From an uncultured delta proteobacterium (GTDB lineage: Bacteria > Myxococcota_A > Polyangia > Fen-1088), in the NCBI GenBank assembly GCA_963737265.1, contig CAVTRY010000011.1, positions 1,056,001 through 1,120,000 of the forward strand: 64,000 nt of DNA. The letters run 5' to 3'. The notes beneath the pieces were generated by a model. That model saw nothing but the letters and a program-made list of their open reading frames with translations, had not been told where the DNA came from and did no database searches. The position numbers were made by a program, and so were the translations under genes. This document shows positions 58 to 15,976 of the stretch, piece after piece; the stretch's first letter is position 1, and the number at the start of each line of letters is the position of its first letter.

Positions 58-1353
58 GTGGCCAAGTTGCTGGAGGAAACGCCTGGGCTGGAGGCTCAGA
101 CGGTGCTGGAGCTGCTGGAGGCGAAGCAGCCAGGGCGGTACAACGAGAGCCATCTTCGGACAATGCAGCGGCGAATCCGTCGCTGGCGGGCCGAGCATGG
201 TCCTGCGCGTGAGATTTGGTTCACGCAGGCGCATCGGCCCGGTGAAGCCGCGCAAACCGACTTCACGTCGACGGCGGAGCTTGGTGTGACGATCGTGGGC
301 CAGCTATTTGTGCACCTTTTGTGCGTGACGGTGCTGCCGTACTCGAACTGGCAATGGGCGACCGCGTGTCTGTCGGAGTCTCTGGCAGCGCTTCGGCGAG
401 GGATCCAGTCGGCGCTGTTCCAGCTTGGGCGGGTGCCGCGATACCACCAAACCGACCACTCGACGGCGGCGACACATCAGATCGCTCGCGATGCGGAAGA
501 TCGCACTTTCAACGATGAATACAAGGCGGTCATGCGGCACCTCGGAATGGAGCCACGAACTACAGCCGTCGGGGCCAAGGAACAAAACGGCGATGTGGAG
601 GCCAGCAACGGCGCGCTCAAGCGTCGGCTTGAACAAGCGTTGCTGGTGCGTGGCAGCCGCGACTTCGCGGACCAAGACGACTACGAACGCTTCGTAGCCA
701 AGGTGGTCCGCAAAGCCAACGCTTCGCGAGGCCCGCGCGTCGCCGAGGAGATCGAAGCCATGCGGCCGCTGGTGGTGGAGCGTTTGCCGGAGTACGCAGA
801 AATGACGGCACCTGTGGCGTCGACGAGCACCATCCGGGTCAAGTCGTGCGCCTACTCGGTGCCGTCGAGGCTGATCGGCGCACGGGTGAGAGTCCGCGTG
901 TTCGAGCACCGAATCGAGGTGTACTACGCCGACAACTTGGAATTGGCCTGCGACAGGCTGCGAGGCAAGACCGCGCGCATCGACTACCGGCACGTCATCT
1001 GGTCTTTGGTGCGCAAGCCGGGCGCGTTTTCTCGCTACGTCTACCGAGAAGAGCTGTTTCCAAGCGTGACTTTCAGGCGGGCATACGACGCGATCCAGGC
1101 GACCAAGCCTGGAATCAAAGGCGACGTTGAATACCTGCGCATTCTTCACCTGGCCGCCAGCACGATGGAAGCCGATGTCGAGCAAGCGCTCACGACTCTG
1201 CTTGCCGATGGGACCATCTTGACGGCGGATGCAACCAAGAAGAGATGCACACAGGCGACGGACAGTACCTATCCACCGAGCGTCCCCGCGCTCGAAGCAC
1301 CGCTGGTCGATCTCGCGTCCTACGACCTGCTCCTCGAACAGGTGGCATCATGA
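58..1353 (+). CDS. istA: IS21 transposase IstA (N-terminus probably outside window)
   Basis: DDE-like QTDFT / QTDHS / GDVE motifs and YSVPSRLIG beta-barrel; ATGA overlap with istB. Confidence 0.9.
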   Translation: MAKLLEETPGLEAQTVLELLEAKQPGRYNESHLRTMQRRIRRWRAEHGPAREIWFTQAHRPGEAAQTDFTSTAELGVTIVGQLFVHLLCVTVLPYSNWQWATACLSESLAALRRGIQSALFQLGRVPRYHQTDHSTAATHQIARDAEDRTFNDEYKAVMRHLGMEPRTTAVGAKEQNGDVEASNGALKRRLEQALLVRGSRDFADQDDYERFVAKVVRKANASRGPRVAEEIEAMRPLVVERLPEYAEMTAPVASTSTIRVKSCAYSVPSRLIGARVRVRVFEHRIEVYYADNLELACDRLRGKTARIDYRHVIWSLVRKPGAFSRYVYREELFPSVTFRRAYDAIQATKPGIKGDVEYLRILHLAASTMEADVEQALTTLLADGTILTADATKKRCTQATDSTYPPSVPALEAPLVDLASYDLLLEQVAS

Positions 1354-2198
1354 CCAACGTCTCCGTAGACACGGTCAAGCCGAGCGCGCTCGACGCTCTG
1401 CTGGTGCTTCTGCGCGCGCTCAAGCTGCCTGCCTTCACCCGGCACGCCGAGGAGATCGCGATCAAGGCCAGCCGCGAGGGGTGGACCTTCAGCCAATACC
1501 TCCAGCACCTGGCCGAACTGGAAATCGAAGAGCGCCGAACCCGTCGCATCGATCGCGCGCTTCGCGATTCGGACCTTCCCACGGAGAAAACCCTGGCCAC
1601 CCTGGAACGTGGTCGGCTGTCACCCAAGGTGATGAAGCAGATGGCGAGCCTGTGTGAGGGTGGCTTTGTCGAACGTGGGGAGAACCTGCTCGTCTTCGGA
1701 CTGCCCGGCCGAGGCAAAAGTCACGTTGTGGCTGCCATCGGCCACGAACTCATCCGGCGCGGCTACCGGGTCCTCTTCACGCCGACCTTCGCGCTTGTCC
1801 AGAGGCTGCTGGCCGCCAAGCGCGACCTTCGCCTGGAACGAGAACTGGCCGCGCTCGACATCTATCACGCCGTGATCCTCGACGACATCGGCTACGTCCA
1901 GCAGAGCCGCGATGAAATGGAGGTCCTTTTCACCTTCCTGGCCGAGCGGTACGAACGCAAGAGCGTCCTCATCACCAGCAACCTGGTCTTCAGCGATTGG
2001 ATCCGCATTTTCAAGGATCCCATGACCACCGCCGCCGCCATCGACCGACTGGTCCACCACGCGGTCATCCTTGAGATGACCGGCCCCAGCTACCGCAGCG
2101 AAGAAGCACGAAAGAGAGGCGTCACCACCCCAGCGACAACTACGACAACTACCGATCAACCAACGACAACTACCCCCGACAACAATGGGGCGATGTAA
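1350..2198 (+). CDS. istB: IS21 helper AAA+ ATPase IstB
   Basis: Walker A GLPGRGKS, Walker B VILDD, ITSN and AIDRLVHH motifs; Thr-rich tail. Confidence 0.93.
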   Translation: MTNVSVDTVKPSALDALLVLLRALKLPAFTRHAEEIAIKASREGWTFSQYLQHLAELEIEERRTRRIDRALRDSDLPTEKTLATLERGRLSPKVMKQMASLCEGGFVERGENLLVFGLPGRGKSHVVAAIGHELIRRGYRVLFTPTFALVQRLLAAKRDLRLERELAALDIYHAVILDDIGYVQQSRDEMEVLFTFLAERYERKSVLITSNLVFSDWIRIFKDPMTTAAAIDRLVHHAVILEMTGPSYRSEEARKRGVTTPATTTTTTDQPTTTTPDNNGAM

Positions 2199-6001: not shown

Positions 6002-6838
6002 ATGATCGAGCCCCACAACGACCTATCTGTCCGTCGGCAGTGCGAGCTGCTGAATCTTGCGAGATCGGGCATCTACTGGGAGCCGATGCCGATGGCAGAG
6101 GAAGATCTGGCCATCTGCAAGGAGCTGGACAAGCTGCATCTCGAATTGCCAGCATTCGGCAGCCGGAAGCTGTCACGGTTGCTAAAGGCACAGGGGCAGA
6201 CGGTGAATCGCAAACGGGTGCAGAGACTGATGCGAATCATGGGCATCGAAGCGCTGGCGCCCAAACCGCGGACGACCGTGCCCGCGCCGGAACATACGAA
6301 ATTCCCGTACTTGCTGCGCCATCTCGCGATCATTCGGCCCAATCAGGTGTGGGCCTCGGATATCACGTACATCCCGACGAGACAGGGGCATTGCTACCTG
6401 GTCGCCGTGATGGATTGGTACACGCGCCGGGTTCTGTCCTGGCGCATTTCAAACACGATGGACAGCCGTTTTTGCATCGAGGTCGTGGAAGAAGCTCTTG
6501 CGAACTTCGGCTTGCCGGAGATCTTCAACACCGACCAGGGGTCGCAGTTTACCGACGACAACTTCACATCGGTTTTGCTGGACAAGGGCGTAAAGGTCAG
6601 CATGGACGGTCGCGGCCGATTCATGGACAACATCTTCGTCGAGCGTCTATGGCGGTCTGTCAAATGCGAGGAGGTCTACTTGAACGACTACCGAGACGTG
6701 GCCGACGCCCGCAGTGGCATCGCGATCTACCTGGACAAGTACAACCACAGGCGGCCTCACCAAACCCTTGGATTTCAGACACCCGTAGCGTTTTACGAAT
6801 TCGAACTAAAGAAGTCGGCGATGAAAGAGGCCGCCTAA
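6002..6838 (+). CDS. IS3 transposase OrfB (DDE)
   Basis: WASDITY, NTDQGSQF and DNIFVERLWRSVK motifs; -1 frame relative to OrfA. Confidence 0.93.
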   Translation: MIEPHNDLSVRRQCELLNLARSGIYWEPMPMAEEDLAICKELDKLHLELPAFGSRKLSRLLKAQGQTVNRKRVQRLMRIMGIEALAPKPRTTVPAPEHTKFPYLLRHLAIIRPNQVWASDITYIPTRQGHCYLVAVMDWYTRRVLSWRISNTMDSRFCIEVVEEALANFGLPEIFNTDQGSQFTDDNFTSVLLDKGVKVSMDGRGRFMDNIFVERLWRSVKCEEVYLNDYRDVADARSGIAIYLDKYNHRRPHQTLGFQTPVAFYEFELKKSAMKEAA

Positions 6839-7346
6839 ATCGCCGCTGCATCATGCTGATGGCACGCTGCCCACAACTGCAACGCGTTCACCTGCTTCTG
6901 TGGGGCCGTGCGCGCATTGCATCCGTGGACAGCAGCCATCAGCATGCCTCCGCTCTCAACAATTTCCTTGCCGGCGAGGCTCACCCGGATCTACAAACAA
7001 ACCCACGCGGACTCTCTCTTAGCTCGGGCCATTTCTGGTCCTACCAAAGGGGTCCACTTCAGTCGCCATCGAGCGCGACAACCCGCGCCTCAAGGGCGTC
7101 CTGCCCAAAGAGTACGCCCGCCCCGGCCTCGACAAGCACCGCCTGGGCGAGCTCATCGACCTCATCGGCACCATCGGACTCGGCGACCGCGAGAACCGCG
7201 CCAAGGACATCCTGGGCCGTGCGTACGAATACTTCCTTACCCAGTTCGCCAGCGCCGAGGGCAAGAACGGCGGCCAGTTCTACACCCCGTCCTGTGTCGT
7301 GCGCTGCCTGGTCGCCATGCTCGCGCCATACAAGGGCCGAATCTAC

Positions 7347-7382
<36 letters not shown>

Positions 7383-7762
7383 TCCGAGAAGTTCGTGGAA
7401 GCCCACGGCGGCAAGCTGGGCGACATCAGCATCTACGGCCAAGAGAGCAACGCCACCACCCGCCGCCTGGCCGTGATGAACCTTGCCCTGCGTGGCATCG
7501 AAGCCGACTTCGGCCCCGAGCACGCCGACACCTTCCGCCGCGACCTGCACCCCGACCTGCGCGCCGACTACGTCCCGGCCAATCCGCCCTTCAACGACTC
7601 GGACTGGTTCCGCAAGGACGACGACGTGCGCTGGCAGTTCGGCAGCCCGCCCAAGGGCACCACCACGTCGGCGCGGAGGAAGTGGAAGATGATGGCGAGC
7701 CGTTTGGCGAGAAGATGGCGAGACTGGTAGCTGAGCTAAGCGGGCAATTCGCCGAGGGAGCC

Positions 7763-7816
7763 AAGCTGGAGAAGGCCATCAAGGCGAACCTGAAGGGGCT
7801 GGGGTATGGAGGCTAA
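7763..7816 (+). repeat. hsdM 3'-end direct repeat, copy 1
   Basis: 46/54 identical to 8969-9022. Confidence 0.9.
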
Positions 7817-7973: not shown

Positions 7974-8035
7974 ACAGCAAACCCGCCGGGCCTCTATCGC
8001 AAGATATGCTCTCTCTCGGCGGGTGTTTCTTTTTC
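7974..8035 (+). ncRNA. Putative abiF-type leader/antitoxin RNA hairpin with U-tract
   Basis: ACCCGCCG (7981-7988) pairs with CGGCGGGT (8017-8024), followed by GTTTCTTTTT, directly upstream of the Abi gene. Confidence 0.6.
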
Positions 8036-8049
8036 AGGGTGAGGATGTC

Positions 8050-8967
8050 GTGAGGTTCACGAAGCCACCCCTGAGTGTCGAACAGCAGGTCGACCTCTTG
8101 CTGACTCGGGGAATACAAGGCGATCGCGGCGAAATGCTCCAGCGCCTGACCGCCGTCAGCTACTACCGCCTTAGCGGCTACTGGTTCCACCGCAAGCTGG
8201 CCGACAACACCTTTCAGCCCGGAACCCATTTCCAGGTGGTTTGGGACCAGTACGTCTTCGATCGCAAGCTGCGGATCGTGTTCATGGACGCTATCGAACG
8301 GATCGGGGTGGGTCTGCGGACGTTCCTATCGCTTCATCACGCCCATGCGCACGGTCCCTTCGGATACACAGATGACCCGGCCTCGCTTCCCAAGTTAGAT
8401 CCATCGAGACGTGCCGACCTTCTGAAACGCATCACCGATGAGGTGCAGCGAAACCGGAAGCGGGAGCTTTTCGTGAAGCACTTCTTCGACACCTACGGCG
8501 ACCACCACACCTTGCCGCCGATCTGGGTCGCCACCGAGGTGATGAGCTTGGGTTGCGTGCTCAGCCTTTGGCAGGCCACGACCAAGAAGGTGAAGAACGA
8601 AGTTGCCCGGATGTTCAAGGTCAGCGACGAGGTGTTGAAGACGTGGCTGTGGTCGCTAAACGAAGTTCGCAACATTTGCGCCCACCATGGTCGCCTGTGG
8701 AACCGCGATTTGGGGAACAAGCCGACCATTCCACACGCCAAGCATCATCCCGACTGGCATGCACCCGTCGCCATCCCCAACCACCGGGTCTTCGCTGTCT
8801 TGACGGTTTGCGCGCATTCGTTGACGCTGCTCGCGCCCCATAGCCATTGGCAACGTCGACTGCGGGGCTTGCTGAATCAGCATCCCAAGGTGCCCATCAA
8901 GAACATGGGCTTCCCAGAGAATTGGCTCGATTGTCCGATCTGGAAAGGTACCGCCGATGCTGCTTAG
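8050..8967 (+). CDS. Abi family (AbiD/AbiF, Abi_2) HEPN RNase
   Basis: KPPLSVEQQ, SYYRLSGY, YVFDRKLR, PPIWVATEVMSLG and HEPN RNICAHH motifs; GAGG RBS before GTG. Confidence 0.9.
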   Translation: MRFTKPPLSVEQQVDLLLTRGIQGDRGEMLQRLTAVSYYRLSGYWFHRKLADNTFQPGTHFQVVWDQYVFDRKLRIVFMDAIERIGVGLRTFLSLHHAHAHGPFGYTDDPASLPKLDPSRRADLLKRITDEVQRNRKRELFVKHFFDTYGDHHTLPPIWVATEVMSLGCVLSLWQATTKKVKNEVARMFKVSDEVLKTWLWSLNEVRNICAHHGRLWNRDLGNKPTIPHAKHHPDWHAPVAIPNHRVFAVLTVCAHSLTLLAPHSHWQRRLRGLLNQHPKVPIKNMGFPENWLDCPIWKGTADAA

Positions 8968-8968
8968 G

Positions 8969-9022
8969 AAGCTGGAGAAAGCCATCAAGGGGAATTTGAA
9001 AGGACTGGGGTATGGCGGATAA
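8969..9022 (+). repeat. hsdM 3'-end direct repeat, copy 2, containing the hsdS start
   Basis: Encodes [17 protein letters not shown]; hsdS ATG overlaps it. Confidence 0.9.
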
Positions 9023-10328
9023 GTGGACACGGGTTCGCGTTGACGAAATCGCGCAGCGGACGGCGACCGGTCCGTTTGGCTCTGCGATTAGCTCGAAGCA
9101 CTTTTGTGATTCCGGTGTTCCCGTCATTCGCGGCAGCAATCTGAGTCAGAAAACGGGCATTCGGTTGGTTGACGAGGGTTTGACGTTCGTCTCGGAGGAG
9201 AAGGCCAGGGAGTTCGCTCGCTCGGAAGCTCGGCCTGGGGACTTGGTATTCACTTGCTGGGGAACAATCGACCAAGTCGGACTCATCGACCGCCGCGCAC
9301 GCCACAAGCGCTACATCGTGTCGAACAAGCAAATGCTGTTCACCCCGGATGCGTCGCGGGCAGACAGCCTCTTTCTGTACTACACGTTCCGTTCACCGGA
9401 GAATCGTTCGGCGATACTGAACCAAGGAATTGGCAGCTCAGTTCCCGGTTTCAACCTGGGGCAGCTCCGCTCATTTGAGATCGACCTTCCGCCCCTCGCT
9501 GTACAGAAGGCAATCGCGGCGGTGCTTGGCGCGCTGGACGACAAGATCGAGTTGAACCGGCGGATGAACTCGACTCTGGATGCGATGGCGCGGGCGCTGT
9601 TCCAGAGCTGGTTCGTGGATTTCGATCCCGTCCGCGCCAAACTCGACGGCCGCAAACCCGAATGCCTCGACAAAGCCACCGCCGCCCTGTTCCCCGCCGC
9701 CTTCGAAGACTCCCCGCTGGGTCTCATCCCACGCGGTTGGGAAACGCGCAGCCTTGACAAGACCGCCAACTACCTGAACGGGCTCGCCCTCCAAAACTAT
9801 CCGGCGGGCGATGGCGATGATCTTCCCGTGATCAAGATTGCCCAGCTCCGCAAGGGCGACACCGATGGAGCAGACCGGTGCAGCGCCGACCTGTCACCCG
9901 AGTACATCGTTCAGGACGGCGATGTACTATTCTCGTGGTCGGGCAGCCTGGAGGTCCAGCTGTGGTGTGGCGGCCCAGGCGCGCTGAACCAGCACCTATT
10001 CAAGGTCACCTCGGCCGAGTTCCCGAAATGGTTCTGCTACCTCTGGACGTTGCACCACCTCGACGAGTTCCGCCTCATCGCAGCTGGCAAGGCGACTACC
10101 ATGGGGCACATCCAGCGCGGCCACTTGACAGCAGCCAAGGTCATCATTCCACCCCAGCCGTTGCTCAAAGCGATGACCCGCGTCTTAGCGCCGCTTGTCG
10201 ACCAAATCATCTCCAACCGCATCCAGTCGCGCACCCTCGCCACCCTGCGCGACACCCTGCTGCCAAAACTGCTGAGCGGGGAGCTGAGCGTAGACGGCCC
10301 GCGAGCCCTTCTTGAAGCGAACCCATGA
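9012..10328 (+). CDS. hsdS: Type I R-M specificity subunit
   Basis: Two TRDs; PPLAVQKAIAAVLGALDDKIELNRRMN and LATLRDTLLPKLLSGE conserved helices. Confidence 0.93.
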   Translation: MADKWTRVRVDEIAQRTATGPFGSAISSKHFCDSGVPVIRGSNLSQKTGIRLVDEGLTFVSEEKAREFARSEARPGDLVFTCWGTIDQVGLIDRRARHKRYIVSNKQMLFTPDASRADSLFLYYTFRSPENRSAILNQGIGSSVPGFNLGQLRSFEIDLPPLAVQKAIAAVLGALDDKIELNRRMNSTLDAMARALFQSWFVDFDPVRAKLDGRKPECLDKATAALFPAAFEDSPLGLIPRGWETRSLDKTANYLNGLALQNYPAGDGDDLPVIKIAQLRKGDTDGADRCSADLSPEYIVQDGDVLFSWSGSLEVQLWCGGPGALNQHLFKVTSAEFPKWFCYLWTLHHLDEFRLIAAGKATTMGHIQRGHLTAAKVIIPPQPLLKAMTRVLAPLVDQIISNRIQSRTLATLRDTLLPKLLSGELSVDGPRALLEANP

Positions 10329-10637
10329 ACGGCAACAAGCGCCTCCGAAGGGTCTTTTCTGTGAAGGAGGAACTCCTCAAGAAGTCCCGCGAGGCGGCGC
10401 TCGCTGCGGTGCAGATATTCAACAACCCAAACGTCACGTTCAAATCCGAGACGTACGTTATCCTCATGATTGTCTCGTGGACGTACCTCCTGCACGCTTA
10501 CTACCGGGGCCAAAGGATCGACTATCGCTACTACGCCCAGGGCGACAGACGAAGGCGATTCGACCGAACGAAGGGCGAGTATGCACTTCACAACACCAGC
10601 GGAAACCACAAAAACCTACACCTGACAGCCTGCTAGC

Positions 10638-10799
10638 CTAGCCCTTCGGCTTGGCCGGCGGCGGGTCGGCTGGCGTAGGCTCTTCCGGCCCCAGGGGCTT
10701 CGGTGGCTCGCCCCCGAGCACCTGCCCCATGATGCGGTCAAACTCGTCTGCCGGCATTCGTAGCTCCTCGTCCTTGCCCGTGGGCTTCTGTGGCTTCAC
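10638..10799 (-). CDS. 53-aa micro-ORF, last gene of the element operon
   Basis: GTG start overlaps the relE stop (GTGA); MKPQKPTGKDEELRMPADEFDRIMGQVLG, Pro-rich tail. Confidence 0.55.
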   Translation of the reverse strand: MKPQKPTGKDEELRMPADEFDRIMGQVLGGEPPKPLGPEEPTPADPPPAKPKG

Positions 10800-11068
10800 C
10801 TGTACACGTCCTTTCGGTGGTCGATGTCGAGCACGCATACGATCACGCCTCGCACGCAATAGAGAATTCGGTAGTCACCTGAGCGGATACGGTAGATCCG
10901 CTCCGCCCCGTCTGCCATGCCCTGTACGATCTTGGCAGTTGTTGGATGTGGATTGGCGGCGAGTTGCTGGATCTTGGTGACGATTTGCCGACGCGGCTTC
11001 TTGTCGAGCGTCTTGAGGTAGTCAAGGCAGCACCGCGCATAGGCAAAGCCGTAGTATGGAGATGGCAT
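10796..11068 (-). CDS. relE: RelE/StbE-family toxin
   Basis: 90 aa, basic; YRIRSGDYRILY and IDHRKDVYR signature; TGATG overlap with the R-M gene. Confidence 0.9.
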   Translation of the reverse strand: MPSPYYGFAYARCCLDYLKTLDKKPRRQIVTKIQQLAANPHPTTAKIVQGMADGAERIYRIRSGDYRILYCVRGVIVCVLDIDHRKDVYR

Positions 11069-13803
11069 CAGGAGAGTAGCTCATCTAGTTCCGCCTCTAG
11101 CTCCGCGCCCTGCACCATGCTGTCCTTATTCTTTCGAATGCCAGCAAGCCTCGATGCGGCGATGGCCGCGTCGCGCTCATCCTCGGTCAGCGAGGATTCG
11201 TCATCGTCGCCTTCTGGTTCGTCATGCAGTCCTTCTATCTGCTTCGTGAGGAGTGTTGCCCGGTTCCGAAGGGCGACCCTTGTCTCAATGATGTGCCTAG
11301 TTTCGTCAATGATGCGCTTGCGCTCCTTGTCAGACTTCGGCACAGCGACCTTCAACTCAAGGACGCGCTTGCCTAGTGTGTCGATAATGTCCTGTGTGAA
11401 CTGCTTGGAACGAATCTGCCTTTTCACAACAGAGGTGTTTAGGCACGCGAAAAGTAGCCATGGATCAATTATCTTTGGATCTTCGACACGCAACCGGAAA
11501 ATGTGACTCTGGAATAGCATCGGAAGGTCGCTTTCCGTCACCATTGCGCACGTGCCTATGAGGTAGGTGCCGTCGCGAACGATCAAGATGTCCCCAGCAC
11601 GCGCATCCGAGCCAGAAGCATACTCTCCGTATATCGCCCTGCTCACTCCATGCTTGAAATCGGCTCGAATTTCCCACCCAGAAAGGTCCGATGATCGGAT
11701 GAATGGTATTTTGCCGGTTCCATATGCCATCTTCCCTGGCTCGACTCCCGTGGAGAACGAAACGGCTCCAGCATCAACCAGCTCTCCGATCTGCATCAGT
11801 TCGTGCGTCTTCAACAGTGAAACGAGATAATGGTCCAATTCGGGATTGTAATACTTCGGGACAAAGATATTGTTGCGAATCTCATTGGATTTGATGAGGA
11901 ACCCTAGGTGATCCCACTGGTCAGGTGCTCGGCGATTCGTCGTGCGGAAGCGTTCGCCGATCACGGGTACATCATCCAACAGTTCCGATGGTCCGCCCTT
12001 GAGGTTCTTCCGGATAGTAGGGTTACCCCGGCTATCGTGGCCACACCACTTGGCGTCGGCCATGAAGATGTTGTATGGCTGCCTCGGCGGTGTCCCCTTC
12101 TTGAGAAGCATGACACACACCTTGGTGTGAGTTCCGCCTTTGCCGCTTGTCTTAAAAAGAGCTTCCGGCATCGTGACTACGGCACGGATGGTTGTCCGGG
12201 CGAGCAAGAATCCGATCACGTAGGCATAGGACGGATTGCCCAGGATGCTTTCTGGAAGCACGATGCCGACCGATCCGCCCTCTTTGGCCAACTGTAGGCA
12301 GCGCTCCAAAAACAGCAGTTGGGGGACCTGATCATCGCGCACGTCAGTCTTATCAAATTCCAGGTCGCCCCCGTCTGCATTCTCGCGCCATTTGTGGCCA
12401 AGGGCGTACTGCACCAGGGTTTCCTTGGTATCGATCTTGAGCTTCGCACCAAAGGGAGGATTCGCTACGACAACCTGAAAGGTTCCCAGCTTGATTGCGT
12501 GGCGCGGTACAGGGTCCCACTGGTCGTGTGGGAGTAGACTGTTCAGGGAGAAGACTCCGCCACGACCATCACCCATTATGGCCATGTATGCCTTCGTCAC
12601 CTTGGCAAGGAAGGAGTCCTTGTCGATTCCTCGGAAACACTGCGATGCTACGCGGATCTTCTTTTGCTCCAACTGCGAAGCTGACCATGCCTTGCGCTTT
12701 CCCTCAGCTTCCAGCTTCCGCCAGACGTTTTCCAGCGCACCAATCAGGAAGCCGCCCGAACCGCACGCTGGGTCTACTATCCAGTCCCCCGGCACGACAT
12801 CGATCATGTCCATGAGCATTTGGACCACGTTGCGAGGTGTAAAGAATTGGCCATCTGCTCCTCGCAGAGCGGGACCAATGAACGTCTCGAACGCGTCCCC
12901 TATGGCATCGCGGCTCGCCCTCGTGAGACAGTAGTTTTGCAGCTCTCCGACAACGTAGGCGACGCTTGGGGCATCAAGCGAAATACTTTCGTGCTCGTCG
13001 AAAACGTCCGCATACTCTGCTTTCACTTTATCATTGAAGATTTCGAGTATTCTTTCTTTGGTGTCGGCTGGTTCCTCGTCGATTCCAGTGTGGAATGACA
13101 CTGCCTCGTCCGGTTCGGTATTCAGTTCGTCGTATAGCTTGCAGAAGAGAATGTTGATGATCTCTTTTGCCACCGCTTCGTCGCGCGTGGTCCCCTGGGT
13201 CAACTGGGCCAGATGGTTGCGTATGTCGCGAAACACAGCTCGAATGTTCGACGGCGGAACCAAATCGCGACGCTTGAACAGTCCGACATCTTCAATGCGC
13301 TGGCCACGCCTAGGGATCGAAGAGATATTCTCATAGTTGCGTTTCCCGTTGCGAAAGACCTTGCGAATGTAGAGGTGCTCGTCGCCGTTGAACCACACTC
13401 CTATGTCGGCCGGCGACATGTCCAGGTAAAGCTTCAATTGAGCAAGGCCATCCTTGCTCGTCTTCTTTTTACACTCAACCACCATGAACAGGTGGTCTTC
13501 TATCTTCTCGGCGTCCTTAAAGACGGCGATGTCGACCGGATACGCCCTTGCCTCGTCCGACGGGCGACTGCGAACCCTGAACTGTGGCCGCGTCTGAATC
13601 TGCGCCTTGTGATAACCGAAATCCTCTACCAGTCTCCTGGCAAAGACCTGTACAGCTTCGTATTCTTCACGAGTAGCTCTGACGGGAAGCTCGCTGATGA
13701 AGTCAATGAGCGTCCCCTCGGCGGGAATTTCGCTCAATTCCGATCCTGCGGGATCGTTGGGTCCGCTTGATGGCGTTTCCTGTCGCTTGGCCAACTTTGC
13801 CAT
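11068..13803 (-). CDS. Single-chain restriction-modification enzyme (HsdR-N-like nuclease + N6-adenine MTase + one TRD; type IIG-like) with acidic antitoxin-like C-terminal tail
   Basis: PVDIAVF..VECKK..QLKLY nuclease; GQFFTP, DPACGSGGFL, NPPF; TRD IPFIRSSDL..GDILI. Confidence 0.88.
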   Translation of the reverse strand: MAKLAKRQETPSSGPNDPAGSELSEIPAEGTLIDFISELPVRATREEYEAVQVFARRLVEDFGYHKAQIQTRPQFRVRSRPSDEARAYPVDIAVFKDAEKIEDHLFMVVECKKKTSKDGLAQLKLYLDMSPADIGVWFNGDEHLYIRKVFRNGKRNYENISSIPRRGQRIEDVGLFKRRDLVPPSNIRAVFRDIRNHLAQLTQGTTRDEAVAKEIINILFCKLYDELNTEPDEAVSFHTGIDEEPADTKERILEIFNDKVKAEYADVFDEHESISLDAPSVAYVVGELQNYCLTRASRDAIGDAFETFIGPALRGADGQFFTPRNVVQMLMDMIDVVPGDWIVDPACGSGGFLIGALENVWRKLEAEGKRKAWSASQLEQKKIRVASQCFRGIDKDSFLAKVTKAYMAIMGDGRGGVFSLNSLLPHDQWDPVPRHAIKLGTFQVVVANPPFGAKLKIDTKETLVQYALGHKWRENADGGDLEFDKTDVRDDQVPQLLFLERCLQLAKEGGSVGIVLPESILGNPSYAYVIGFLLARTTIRAVVTMPEALFKTSGKGGTHTKVCVMLLKKGTPPRQPYNIFMADAKWCGHDSRGNPTIRKNLKGGPSELLDDVPVIGERFRTTNRRAPDQWDHLGFLIKSNEIRNNIFVPKYYNPELDHYLVSLLKTHELMQIGELVDAGAVSFSTGVEPGKMAYGTGKIPFIRSSDLSGWEIRADFKHGVSRAIYGEYASGSDARAGDILIVRDGTYLIGTCAMVTESDLPMLFQSHIFRLRVEDPKIIDPWLLFACLNTSVVKRQIRSKQFTQDIIDTLGKRVLELKVAVPKSDKERKRIIDETRHIIETRVALRNRATLLTKQIEGLHDEPEGDDDESSLTEDERDAAIAASRLAGIRKNKDSMVQGAELEAELDELLS

Positions 13804-13806
13804 GGT

Positions 13807-14775
13807 CTAGCTCGCCTTCCGTTGCGGAGAATGGAGCATGAGGCGCTTGCCTTCCATGCGGAGGATGCCGACCACGGTGCGCTCGCCGTCGGTCATCTTG
13901 CGGGTGTTGTACTTGTGGTCAAGCTCGGCGAAGTAGAGGTGCGTGTGCTTGTAGCTGATGCTGTGGTGGGTGCCGTCAATGCTGCGCTTGGAGTTTCCGA
14001 AGAAGCCCTCGGCGGTGTTCGTGGTCACGCGCACGCCATCTTCTGCCGTGCGCGCGTACTCCTCGATGCTGTGGTTGACGGTCTCGTGTGAAGAGAAGTC
14101 CTTGCCGACCTTTGTGTAGAGCGGGGATTCGTCGGTGTGCAGACTGGCTTCCTCGTTGACGTGTTCCTTCAAGAGCTTCGTGATCGCTTCGCCGGTCACG
14201 TGGTCGACCACGCGGGAGCGCACTCGGCCTCCGCGTTCAATGAGCGATACGACTGGCGTCTTGTTTCCCACGTAGCCCCGGCCTCGACCGCGCATCTTAC
14301 CACCCAGGTAGGTCTCGTCAGCTTCCACGATCCCGGTGAGCTGGTCCGACGGGAAGATGTCGGCGAGGGCGAAGCGGATGCGATGGCAGAGGAACAGGGC
14401 GCTGTGGTAGGAGCCAATCTCAAGCTGGCGTTGAAGCTGAAGCGCCGAGACCTGCGTCTTGCTCGCGCACATCATGTAGAAAGCGATCAGCCACTTGTTC
14501 AACGGAATGTGGCTGTCTTCCATGACCGTTCCGACGGTGACGGTGAAGGTGTCCTGGCACTCGGCGCACTTGTACATGCCCTGTCGGATCTTCGCGGCGC
14601 GGTTCGCGGTCAGCGCGTAGATCCTGAACTCATCGGCGTTTCCACAGTGCGGGCAGCTTCGGCCGTTGGCCCAGCGCACGCCCTCGAAGTACGCGCGCGC
14701 GGCTTCTTCCGTTGAGAAGCGAGCCATCACAGTCATCAGCGTGAGGTCGGAGCCGGTTGCGTTCTTCGTTGCCAT
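13807..14775 (-). CDS. IS1595-family (ISXO2-like) transposase
   Basis: Zn ribbon CPHC..CAEC, VEADETY, LHTDE, VNHS and TNTAEGFF motifs. Confidence 0.95.
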   Translation of the reverse strand: MATKNATGSDLTLMTVMARFSTEEAARAYFEGVRWANGRSCPHCGNADEFRIYALTANRAAKIRQGMYKCAECQDTFTVTVGTVMEDSHIPLNKWLIAFYMMCASKTQVSALQLQRQLEIGSYHSALFLCHRIRFALADIFPSDQLTGIVEADETYLGGKMRGRGRGYVGNKTPVVSLIERGGRVRSRVVDHVTGEAITKLLKEHVNEEASLHTDESPLYTKVGKDFSSHETVNHSIEEYARTAEDGVRVTTNTAEGFFGNSKRSIDGTHHSISYKHTHLYFAELDHKYNTRKMTDGERTVVGILRMEGKRLMLHSPQRKAS

Positions 14776-14781
14776 GATCTG

Positions 14782-14810
14782 AAGATAGTATGATCTGAAT
14801 TATGGCGCAA
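14782..14810 (-). promoter_or_regulatory. Putative leaderless promoter of the tnp-RM-relE operon
   Basis: TTGCGC-N17-TATCTT-N6-ATG. Confidence 0.6.
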
Positions 14811-14816
14811 CCAAAA

Positions 14817-15047
14817 TCAACCTGTGTCTGTCGATTCTGTAGGATGCGTTAAACGCACAGCAGCCTCAACCGCCCATCTGCGAACACAGACCGAGTGGTC
14901 TTGCTCAAGAAAACGAGCTGCTGCCAGGATGGTGGCGCGTTCTTCGTCGGTAAGCGTCACATGAATCGTGTTCTGCTTGCGCCGTGGGTTTGGGGTGCGC
15001 GGGCGACCACGGCGGCGTTGGCTTTGTTCTGGCTGGGTTGAGTCCAT
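14817..15047 (-). CDS. Small DNA-binding regulator (RRGRPR hook + ribbon-helix-helix-like)
   Basis: RRRGRPR then IHVTLTDEERATILAAA..SVCVRRWAVEAA. Confidence 0.65.
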   Translation of the reverse strand: MDSTQPEQSQRRRGRPRTPNPRRKQNTIHVTLTDEERATILAAARFLEQDHSVCVRRWAVEAAVRLTHPTESTDTG

Positions 15048-15053
15048 GCACAC

Positions 15054-15082
15054 AACCTACCAGCACACTAATTTAAGCGCAA
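15054..15082 (-). promoter_or_regulatory. Putative leaderless promoter of the regulator
   Basis: TTGCGC-N17-TAGGTT-N6-ATG with extended -10 TG. Confidence 0.6.
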
Positions 15083-15976
15083 CTAAATCATCCTAGGGTT
15101 TGACGTTCCGTGAACTAGGGCGTCACGTCGGGCGGTGTTGTGAAGTGCATACTCGCCGAACGAAGCATGGCGCCTTCAAGCACTGGGAGCTGGAGAGATG
15201 CCTCGATGAGAAGACCTGTCCGCTCCAGCGCGAGGTGGTTCAAAACCCGAAGTTCCTAACTGGACTCCGCCACGAAATCGAACACCAGATGACCACGCGT
15301 ATTGATGACCTTCTCAGTGCGCGTTTCCAAGCCTGCTGCATCAACTACCACGATGCCAGTGTGGCGCTCTTTGGCGAGGACCACGGCATCGCGAAGCACC
15401 TCGCTGTCAGCTTGCAGTTCGCATCTCTTGGTGCTGAGCAGATCGAGACCCTGGACCAACATCCGGGACTTCCGGGGTACGTAAGGCGATACATCGAGGG
15501 CTTCGATGGCGCACTGACTGCCGACGACTACACGAGCCCGAAGTTCGCCTACCGGGTCATCTTCGTCCCGAAGACGGTGAATCATCCGAGCCAGGCCGAC
15601 CAGGTCATCAAATTCGTCAAGGCTGACTCAGCGGTCGCCCAGCAAGTCAATGCCACCTACGCGGTCGTAAAGGAAACCGAGAAGCCCAAATGTCTTCCGT
15701 CGGAAATCGTCAGGAAGATGAAAGAGGAGGGTTTCCCTCGATTCGGCATGCACCAGCATACGGAACTCTGGAAAAGTATAGACGCCAAGGACATGGGCAA
15801 GGGCTTTGGCGTCTCCATCGGCAAGACCTGGTACTGGTACGACCCATGGCTGGATGAGGTTCGCAAGCATTGCAGGGACAAGAAGGAGAAGTACCAATGA
15901 CTTCAGGGTCCGGTGCGCGTGAAAGAACTTTGGCCTTCACCCTCAATTCCCTGGGCTTTACGAAGGAACTCGTGCC

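Follow-up and report, generated by a model that had tools for sequence, protein, structure and literature searches.

An IS1595-family transposon carries a restriction-modification enzyme with an antitoxin-like C-terminal tail, directly upstream of a RelE gene

In RelBE toxin-antitoxin modules, such as Escherichia coli RelBE and archaeal aRelBE, the antidote of a RelE-fold toxin is encoded immediately upstream of the toxin gene, and the stop and start codons overlap or adjoin. The locus described here has the same layout. It lies in a stretch of 64,000 nucleotides (the window) from the assembly of an uncultured delta proteobacterium (GCA_963737265.1, contig CAVTRY010000011.1), in which the gene of a 911-amino-acid (aa) restriction-modification (R-M) enzyme with an antitoxin-like C-terminal tail runs directly into a relE gene, both as cargo of a transposon of the IS1595 family. 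The antidote-like segment is acidic and helix-prone and has the ED..D pattern of neighbouring classical antitoxins. Unlike the RelBE modules, however, the window unit has neither a free antitoxin gene nor a DNA-binding domain of the ribbon-helix-helix (RHH) or Phd/YefM type, so that classical autoregulation is not expected. Its putative neutralising segment is the C terminus of a 911-aa enzyme and matches nothing in Pfam or among solved structures; the separate small antitoxin with an N-terminal RHH, Phd/YefM or helix-turn-helix domain that marks the RelB/Phd type is lacking.

Other described systems resemble parts of this arrangement. PrrC is an anticodon nuclease that is held non-covalently by a type Ic restriction enzyme and triggered by a phage peptide. 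In the accessible part of PMC12707154, PrrC-EcoprrI and PARIS would share with the window unit a translation-blocking toxin tied to the state of a restriction system, whereas the window unit has a RelE, a covalently attached antitoxin-like peptide, and type IIG-like enzymes or S subunits as partners. Assignment to the PrrC-type guardians (anticodon nuclease, ABC-ATPase-like N-domain, type Ic hsd operon) was rejected, the toxin being a 90-aa RelE and its partner a type IIG-like enzyme on a transposon. CreTA makes Cascade addictive, and its antitoxin works only with an intact defence effector; in CreTA and CrePA this dependence makes the defence genes addictive (PMC12737573, accessible part), as is proposed for the window unit. 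CreTA, however, is an RNA pair that uses Cascade as its repressor, whereas dependence in the window would run through a protein fusion and translation of the whole gene. Pairs of toxin and antitoxin are also carried by Tn3-family transposons (PMC7157771, part of the text) and are found at R-M loci: tvrAT within the pneumococcal tvr R-M locus (PMC6265443, part of the text) and brnAT, symER, and rpn within the immigration control region of E. coli. The IS1595 elements with passenger genes (tIS) share with the window element a DDE transposase with a zinc ribbon, terminal repeats, an 8-bp target duplication, and a cargo placed past the transposase gene and ahead of the distal repeat. Passenger genes in the IS1595 family were reportedly treated by Siguier in 2009. 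Rpn/RpnS and CapRel are also said to have an antitoxin function in the C-terminal part of a larger open reading frame (ORF). There, reportedly, it is a toxin domain of the same gene that is neutralised, whereas the tail in the window belongs to a restriction enzyme and is proposed to act against the product of a separate toxin gene downstream.

The literature searched, which left most subscription journals uncovered and took in no supplements, describes no fusion of an antitoxin to an R-M enzyme or to a specificity subunit, nor an IS1595 element carrying such a fusion together with RelE. The accessible parts of PMC2701414, PMC10865869, PMC6265443, PMC12707154, PMC12548467, and PMC12737573 likewise describe no R-M-antitoxin fusion. 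The locus therefore appears to join known kinds, namely type II toxin-antitoxin, type IIG R-M, and passenger-gene transposon, by a new coupling principle, for which the support is good as regards anatomy and moderate as regards mechanism.

The enzyme, its tail, the overlapping stop and start codons, and RelE were all found with the makeup and coordinates reported by the first-pass annotation, a reading of the DNA made ahead of any database search, and the ORF list of the locus agrees with it that no separate antitoxin ORF lies next to relE. A PD-(D/E)XK-type nuclease, gamma-type N6-adenine methyltransferase motifs, and a target recognition domain (TRD) occur in one polypeptide, the domain set of type IIG enzymes, and the protein is by this content a single-chain, type IIG-like R-M-S enzyme. 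Its motifs are conserved: among 17 aligned relatives the nuclease residues D91, E110, and K112 are invariant, as are D344, P345, A346, G348, S349, G350, G351, and F352 of the S-adenosylmethionine motif DPACGSGGF and N448, P449, P450, F451, and G452 of the catalytic NPPFG. Weaker Pfam matches to Eco57I and MmeI_Mtase were also seen. We did not file the enzyme under the methylation-associated defence system (MADS), because the best NCBIfam model, that of MAD2 (NF047738), scores 344 bits against an equivalog cut-off of 720; its neighbours, moreover, are a transposase and RelE, with no mad genes. The last helix common to the family ends ...ALRNRATLLTKQIEGL, and an acidic linker and then the tail follow that helix.

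The fusion is genuine and not an assembly frameshift. A protein-collection search with enzyme residues 640 to 911 gave 959 matches, of which the best 120 were analysed, and 70 of these 120 are full length (at least 800 aa). Most of the 70 (62) stop just past the last family helix in a short acidic stretch. The other eight, namely the window protein and P0002, P0016, P0017, P0027, P0033, P0052, and P0077, run on into a homologous tail that reaches the C terminus. Over their last ~75 residues the seven other proteins are 32 to 85% identical to the window protein, and the tail-bearers share the consensus EDERDAxIAxxRLAEIxxNPxxLVRGxELExELxRLES. The first-pass annotation had cautioned that a C missing near 11195 might hide a separate 52-aa antitoxin. 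That possibility is refuted here, since the fusion recurs, with the frame kept open, in seven other assemblies, which makes a frameshift artefact implausible; the out-of-frame ATG it had flagged yields merely MTNQKATMTNPR and then a stop codon. Contigs from four sequencing runs, inspected over the region around 11180 to 11240 that had been singled out at the first pass, show no indel across 11059 to 11900. These runs are soil metagenomes of one study, and since the assembly may itself derive from them, they do not provide an independent check.

The downstream product looks like an intact toxin of the RelE/ParE superfamily. The enzyme stop (TGA) and the relE start (ATG) share one base in TGATG. 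A family profile of 38 sequences matched solved RelE structures (1wmi_A at 2.2e-6, 3bpq_B, and 3g5o_B) and, at ~1e-4, E. coli RelE (4fxe_D and 4v7k). Indeed, the basic residues R60, R62, R67, R85, and K86 and the C-terminal tyrosine Y89 are invariant in that alignment, giving both the fold and the conserved residues that define the superfamily; a toxic activity is predicted. In all, 702 relatives of the window RelE were found. Two paralogues, 46% identical, occur in the source genome (C21:136468-136680 and C12:258946-259146), and these stand downstream of ordinary antitoxins, one of Phd/YefM and one of RHH type, whose C termini show the ED..D pattern. A RelE-like match elsewhere (E 2.6e-11, G163:C126:2738-2959) sits within a 763-aa open frame, possibly a further instance in which a large protein has acquired a RelE-family domain by fusion.

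The tail and this RelE go together. Gene context was available for 15 loci: the window, one locus from metagenome contigs (L013), and 13 from contigs filed as viral (L125 to L137). In all 15, a RelE of the window subfamily lies directly downstream of a tail-bearing R-M protein, with the RelE start placed between a 1-nucleotide (nt) overlap and a 9-nt gap relative to the R-M stop. The R-M ORF is uninterrupted in every case, and no Shine-Dalgarno sequence is visible before RelE in any of the 15. A homologue search, which the first-pass annotation had named as a check, thus finds the same fusion upstream of relE at other loci. L013 was the one confirmed locus among four stretches matched when metagenomes were scanned with the tail alignment; it is close to P0016 and encodes a 906-aa tailed enzyme, whose stop is overlapped by the ATG of a RelE of 90 aa. 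Scanning the viral contigs with the tail alignment found nothing, and scanning them with the RelE alignment found 19 loci. Thirteen of the latter have a RelE of the window subfamily (43 to 56% identity), preceded by an uninterrupted ORF that ends in the tail and stops 3 to 9 nt before the RelE start; these ORFs are of 773 to 918 aa, except for two of 324 to 366 aa. Five others, with a distant RelE (33 to 37% identity), have ordinary small antitoxins, and L138 has only a partial RelE. Pfam, run on 10 of the 13 R-M proteins from viral contigs, gave N6_Mtase in eight (three of them also with an HSDR_N-type nuclease) and Methylase_S in two, the specificity-subunit loci L126 and L131; in L131, an N6_Mtase is encoded by a gene of its own upstream. 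The tail is borne by at least four R-M architectures, separate specificity subunits among them, and at all 15 loci the tailed R-M protein is supported as the sole candidate antitoxin for the RelE gene immediately downstream.

The controls agree with this. Among 80 loci of tail-less relatives from species genomes, not one has the tail or, in the 1.5 kb that follow the gene, a RelE-like ORF, although six of these loci offer less than 400 nt of downstream sequence. The tail profile matched nothing in 400 other genomes of the phylum; no close RelE was found there either (best 75 bits, against 164 for the self match), and the RelE matches in those genomes adjoin classical Phd/YefM or RHH antitoxins. 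In a tree of the 70 full-length enzymes, computed with the last 70 residues removed and read as topology without support values, the tail-bearers fall into two separate clades. Together with the varied architectures on viral contigs, this indicates that the tail was attached to, or exchanged among, R-M proteins more than once. Two observations on the enzyme family stand apart from this. P0042 (936 aa) is nested in a tail-bearing clade and has no tail; its C terminus is ORF3-like (...GMDPDDLARKMLSTPPMKKRPANKS), ORF3 being the small gene that follows relE in the window, and it looks like a clean loss of tail and relE that joined ORF3 to the enzyme. In many of the species-genome relatives, the tblastn match of an enzyme of ~850 residues spans ~3.15 to 3.36 kb and not ~2.5 kb (L033, L039, L053, L059 to L062, L066 to L070, L074, L076, L077, L080, L083, L086, and L090 to L093), which suggests an insertion of ~0.7 kb within the gene, for example an extra domain, an intein, or an intron.

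The tail is a self-contained module, since it occurs alone, behind diverse domains, and on stumps of transposase. A profile of the last ~75 residues was compared with 1.84 billion representative sequences and matched 225 clusters at an E value of 0.001 or less, nearly all through tail positions. Among the best 150 of these clusters, 149 have a local match to the tail, and in 119 of the 149 the match ends 12 residues or fewer from the C terminus. Short proteins are common in the same 150, with 95 of 100 aa or less and 35 of 60 aa or less, some of which comprise little beyond the tail itself; many of them may be gene-calling fragments from short contigs. A word-index search for short tail proteins with residues 864 to 911 gave 65 candidates, none at an E value of 10 or less, a miss that does not mean true absence, because the exhaustive profile search later found such proteins. 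The domains joined to the tail include N6_Mtase (P0335), Methylase_S (P0305 and one more), and N6_N4_Mtase (P0309), as well as MerR, RecT, and Unstab_antitox. In P0338, P0342, and P0376, the first 80 to 190 residues of a transposase 58 to 70% identical to that of the window are joined in frame to the tail, in P0241 the tail is retained behind a disrupted enzyme end, and in P0325 the tail and a RelE-like sequence lie within one ORF. The classical antitoxins beside RelE paralogues, in the source genome and in relatives, end in the same ED..D......R/L pattern.

Co-folding of RelE with the linker and tail, also proposed at the first pass, gave a score of 0.53 (0.53, 0.52, and 0.53), against 0.01 for the best of three controls, with contact agreement of at least 81% across runs and a partner pLDDT (predicted local distance difference test) of at least 67. 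Of 80 solved complexes 58 attain the pass mark, as do 2 of 110 mismatched pairs, and a pass may mirror likeness to solved RelBE complexes.

In light of these results, we favour the explanation that the enzyme polypeptide is the antitoxin of RelE and that the R-M gene, and the transposon with it, is thereby addictive, and we put its probability at roughly 0.6. The last 40 residues of the enzyme would act as a toxin-neutralising peptide in the style of RelB/Phd, and the downstream gene would encode an mRNA interferase of the RelE family. The base shared by stop and start, and the lack of a visible Shine-Dalgarno sequence, suggest that translation of RelE depends on ribosomes terminating at the end of the enzyme ORF. 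Every RelE would in that case arise right after and beside its antidote and be held on the C terminus of the enzyme. The antidote would be the part translated last and would require the whole 2.7-kb ORF to be read to its end, so that loss of the element or truncation of the enzyme would remove it. Loss of the transposon, or a deletion, frameshift, or nonsense mutation in the R-M gene, would stop the supply of antitoxin; RelE already made would outlive the tail, be freed, and arrest growth. The intactness of all 15 R-M ORFs, and the tail kept in frame in decayed elements, are consistent with addiction and are no test of it. The proposal that the R-M enzyme is itself the antitoxin, made in the first-pass annotation, thus stands as to the genuine fusion and the sole candidate beside RelE at 15 of 15 loci, whereas for binding it has a single co-fold of weak support. 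What was observed is the anatomy, conservation, co-occurrence, and mobility; binding, toxicity, the relative stabilities, and the selective role are the inferred parts.

Several points weigh against this explanation. The searches for relatives of the tail were empty: Pfam gave nothing on the last 65 or last 110 residues of the enzyme, a Protein Data Bank profile search with 56 tail-bearing proteins had 0 matches, and the ESM Atlas returned no usable match for residues 868 to 911. The antitoxin nature of the tail consequently rests mainly on context. An hhalign comparison of the tail with eight classical antitoxins aligned 15 columns, the ED..D..R..LAE core only, at a probability of 7.5% and an E value of 0.0046. 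The co-fold itself is rated as weak support, and the pass mark was reached at scores of 0.60 or less by 7 of the 80 solved complexes and by both of the mismatched pairs that passed. All context loci besides the window come from one collection of contigs filed as viral and from one metagenome contig. Given coupling, a premature stop in the enzyme would lower new synthesis of RelE too, so that killing would need pre-made RelE to outlast the tail, which, as part of a large folded enzyme, might be stable. In some homologues a free mini-antitoxin may be made, since an in-frame methionine directly precedes the tail in L013/P0016 and in P0033, and P0243 is annotated as a separate 52-aa protein. Finally, contigs of the soil runs break within relE, at 11059 (X1 and X4), 10977 (X3), 10883 (X2), and 10945 (X1), and beyond 11059 (X1 and X4) and 10977 (X3) they continue into one common foreign AT-rich sequence of at least 1.8 to 3.7 kb, a 20-mer of which is not present in the source genome. 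These may be strain variants with an interrupted relE or graph tangles arising from the many close RelE genes in soil; relE-disrupted variants may thus exist and persist, which would itself fit a toxic gene.

An alternative function is abortive infection, in which RelE would stay latent on the R-M enzyme and be freed when a phage inhibits or degrades that enzyme, so that translation stops and the infection aborts. Possible triggers are anti-restriction proteins, host shut-off, and attack on the tail by Lon or Clp. We regard this as unlikely, although it has points in its favour. Toxin and defence enzyme are physically linked, the island around the element is one of defence genes, with Abi_2 and HsdS close by, and 13 related loci are on contigs filed as viral. 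There are precedents as well: the accessible part of the 2025 review (PMC12707154) names PrrC and PARIS as R-M guardian systems, and CrePA, in the portion available of PMC12737573, sets off abortive infection once CRISPR-Cas is disabled. However, nothing in the sequence indicates a phage sensor, and neither RelE nor ORF3 matches a PADLOC defence model. The tail also occurs on at least four unrelated R-M architectures, on truncated transposases, on other domains, or alone, and this indifference to the fusion partner makes a trigger by enzyme conformation unlikely. Status as transposon cargo, the modular tail, and the conserved ORF3, all three of them missed at the first pass, favour addiction, or the safeguarding of a gene, at least as much as abortive infection. 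The two functions are compatible and could both hold.

It is less probable still that the pair is an ordinary stabilising toxin-antitoxin module whose fusion is incidental, with a free mini-peptide arising from an internal or non-canonical start and no tie to restriction. The many short tail proteins among the best 150 clusters, the methionines before the tail in L013/P0016 and P0033, and the separate call of P0243 would all fit such a peptide, and the intragenic RpnS antitoxins, reportedly described by Zhong in 2023, are a precedent. Yet the short database proteins may in good part be gene-calling fragments, and in all 15 contexts it is an R-M gene, not an arbitrary one, that precedes relE. 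The window has no in-frame ATG, GTG, or TTG from the last helix up to the conserved half of the tail, so that its tail would be made only as part of the enzyme, barring a non-canonical start, and P0002, P0017, P0027, P0052, and P0077 likewise have no methionine just before the tail as judged by eye.

A structural role, with the tail as an oligomerisation extension of the TRD and the RelE-like protein as a non-toxic accessory subunit, is very improbable. TRDs of the HsdS type reportedly end in helices that pair with each other, which would suit such an extension. But the tail is absent from those 62 of 70 close full-length relatives and from all 80 species-genome relatives, it is found by itself as well as on non-R-M proteins, and the residues conserved in RelE are the basic ones and the C-terminal tyrosine. 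The least credible account, a sequencing or assembly frameshift that falsely joined a small antitoxin gene to the R-M gene, has on its side the AAGGA before the out-of-frame ATG near 11230 and an earlier reader's impression of indel errors in the assembly, and fails on the in-frame fusion in the seven database proteins, L013, and the 13 viral-contig loci, all of them other assemblies, on the indel-free contigs of the four runs (which may be the assembly source), and on the absence of a DNA-binding domain from the alternative ORF in any event.

If the enzyme is indeed the antitoxin of RelE, the arrangement bears on the question of how mobile elements keep costly cargo intact, restriction enzymes being a frequent target of loss or inactivation. 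An antitoxin tail joined covalently would solve this very simply, in that null mutants would poison themselves. It would extend safeguarded immunity from CRISPR-Cas (CreTA) to restriction-modification by way of protein fusion, add a new minimal antitoxin family with neither a DNA-binding domain nor a solved structure, reveal a transposon family that spreads R-M systems along with their own lock, and offer a compact genetic tool for rendering a gene addictive. A broader version can be put forward tentatively. The tail may be a portable antitoxin tag that makes full-length translation of any tagged ORF the condition for surviving the adjacent RelE, an insurance of mobile elements against the loss or inactivation of costly defence cargo. 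Such a tag would have been acquired on several occasions, by at least four R-M architectures, and would remain in frame on transposase stumps after deletion of the cargo; the tether might also serve as a release switch triggered by phage.

The R-M enzyme and relE are the cargo of a 4,584-bp transposon of the IS1595 family, at 10574 to 15157 of the window (Table 1). The transposase has an N-terminal zinc ribbon, and terminal repeats and a target duplication bound the element, as expected of this family, in which the target duplication is of 8 bp. The 17-base core pattern of the terminal repeat has two matches in the window, where chance alone would give 0.19. All genes of the element are on the minus strand, in the order 78-aa ORF, transposase, enzyme, relE, and ORF3, and the transposon is single-copy in the genome. 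Besides its match in Table 1, the transposase matches Zn_ribbon_IS1595 (PF12760, 6.6e-13) in Pfam and NF033547 (7.8e-51) in NCBIfam. The element splits a DUF3644 gene, whose halves are in frame once the element and one copy of the duplication are removed. That gene directly follows an Abi_2 gene and a type I hsdS gene (neighbours at 8023 to 8964 and 9012 to 10328), so the R-M-carrying transposon has landed within another defence island.

Table 1. Features of the transposon, its cargo, and the interrupted gene, in window coordinates
Feature	Position	Strand	Details
Single-chain R-M-S enzyme, type IIG-like, with fused tail	11068..13803	-	911 aa
HSDR_N_2 nuclease domain, residues 52-164, D91...E110-x-K112	13312..13650	-	Pfam 1.5e-11
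N6-adenine DNA methyltransferase domain N6_Mtase, residues 297-586, DPACGSGGF and NPPFG	12046..12915	-	Pfam 3.1e-28
HsdS-like TRD, residues 641-842 (matches reach ~857)	11278..11883	-	NCBIfam MADS5-like 1.8e-10; PADLOC Specificity_I 3.2e-11
Acidic linker HDEPEGDDDESS, residues 860-871	11191..11226	-	tail-less relatives stop here in a short acidic stretch
Antitoxin-like tail LTEDERDAAIAASRLAGIRKNKDSMVQGAELEAELDELLS, enzyme residues 872-911	11071..11190	-	homologous in 7 other proteins
relE, gene of a 90-aa RelE/ParE-superfamily toxin (predicted)	10796..11068	-	Pfam ParE_toxin PF05016 6.2e-8
ORF3, 53 aa, GTG start overlapping the relE stop (GTGA), motif ..EELRMPADEFDRIMGQVL.. then Pro/Lys-rich end	10638..10799	-	
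IS1595-family transposase, 322 aa, stop 3 nt before the R-M start	13807..14775	-	DDE_Tnp_IS1595 PF12762 1.2e-33
78-aa ORF between inverted repeat and transposase	14817..15053	-	no Pfam match
Terminal inverted repeat, cargo end (GGCGAGTATGCACTTCACAACACC)	10574..10597	.	24 nt, 100% complementary to 15134-15157
Terminal inverted repeat, transposase end (GGTGTTGTGAAGTGCATACTCGCC)	15134..15157	.	
8-bp target-site duplication GAACGAAG, left copy	10566..10573	.	identical 8 bases flank both repeats
8-bp target-site duplication GAACGAAG, right copy	15158..15165	.	
Split DUF3644 gene, 5' part	10325..10573	+	PF12358 profile positions 1-57, 1e-22
Split DUF3644 gene, 3' part	15166..15900	+	PF12358 profile positions 65-180, 5.5e-25

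Related elements are found at most of the other context loci. The terminal repeat recurs ~210 nt past relE in 11 of the other 14, in 10 of them the R-M gene is immediately preceded by the end of a transposase gene (54 to 87% identity), and complete elements with both repeats, transposase, tailed enzyme, and RelE are present on four viral contigs (L185, L196, L200, and L207). Three further viral contigs (L188, L194, and L197) have the same terminal repeat and other cargo, consisting of unidentified ORFs over 1.5 to 3.6 kb, with no tail, RelE, or R-M gene, and tail and RelE are likewise missing from 38 IS1595 loci that are more distant. Conversely, in L131, L133, and L134 the pair of tailed enzyme and RelE occurs with no repeat or transposase in the available sequence, and L133 has a serine-recombinase fragment upstream in place of the transposase. 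The toxin-antitoxin pair thus goes with the R-M cargo, and not all elements have it; its rejection as part of the transposon backbone follows from both sets of loci. The differing cargo of L188, L194, and L197 also suggests that this transposon subfamily is a general cargo carrier.

ORF3 has the family motif ..DELRMxxxEFDRIMGxaL.. followed by a Lys/Pro-rich end, with no match in Pfam or PADLOC. A homologue is present in 12 of the 15 loci, exactly the 12 with the terminal repeat (none of the three without it), and in four loci (L128, L129, L130, and L132) ORF3 is fused in frame to the end of RelE. ORF3 was considered as a second antitoxin and rejected, in that it tracks the transposon repeat and not RelE as such. 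L194, with its other cargo, has a possible ORF3-like gene that aligns poorly.

At the other end of the element, the 78-aa ORF is Arg-rich and continues ...IHVTLTDEERATILAAARFLE...; by eye it may be a ribbon-helix-helix-like regulator, and it is not found in the related element L144, which leaves no room for it. A promoter scan of 10400 to 15300 gave no sigma-70-like sites, against 1.9 expected in shuffles, and terminator-like sites there were at chance level; both results are uninformative for this organism. Upstream of the Abi_2 gene, three overlapping ORFs lie on the plus strand between 6002 and 7816 (6002 to 6838, 6040 to 7476, and 6908 to 7816), of which the second, of 478 aa, has no Pfam match, and the trio could represent a gene of the defence island that is novel or frame-shifted. 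Another mobile element is marked, close to the beginning of the window, by a gene for an IstB_IS21 helper ATPase (1245 to 2195, plus strand, 4.2e-56).

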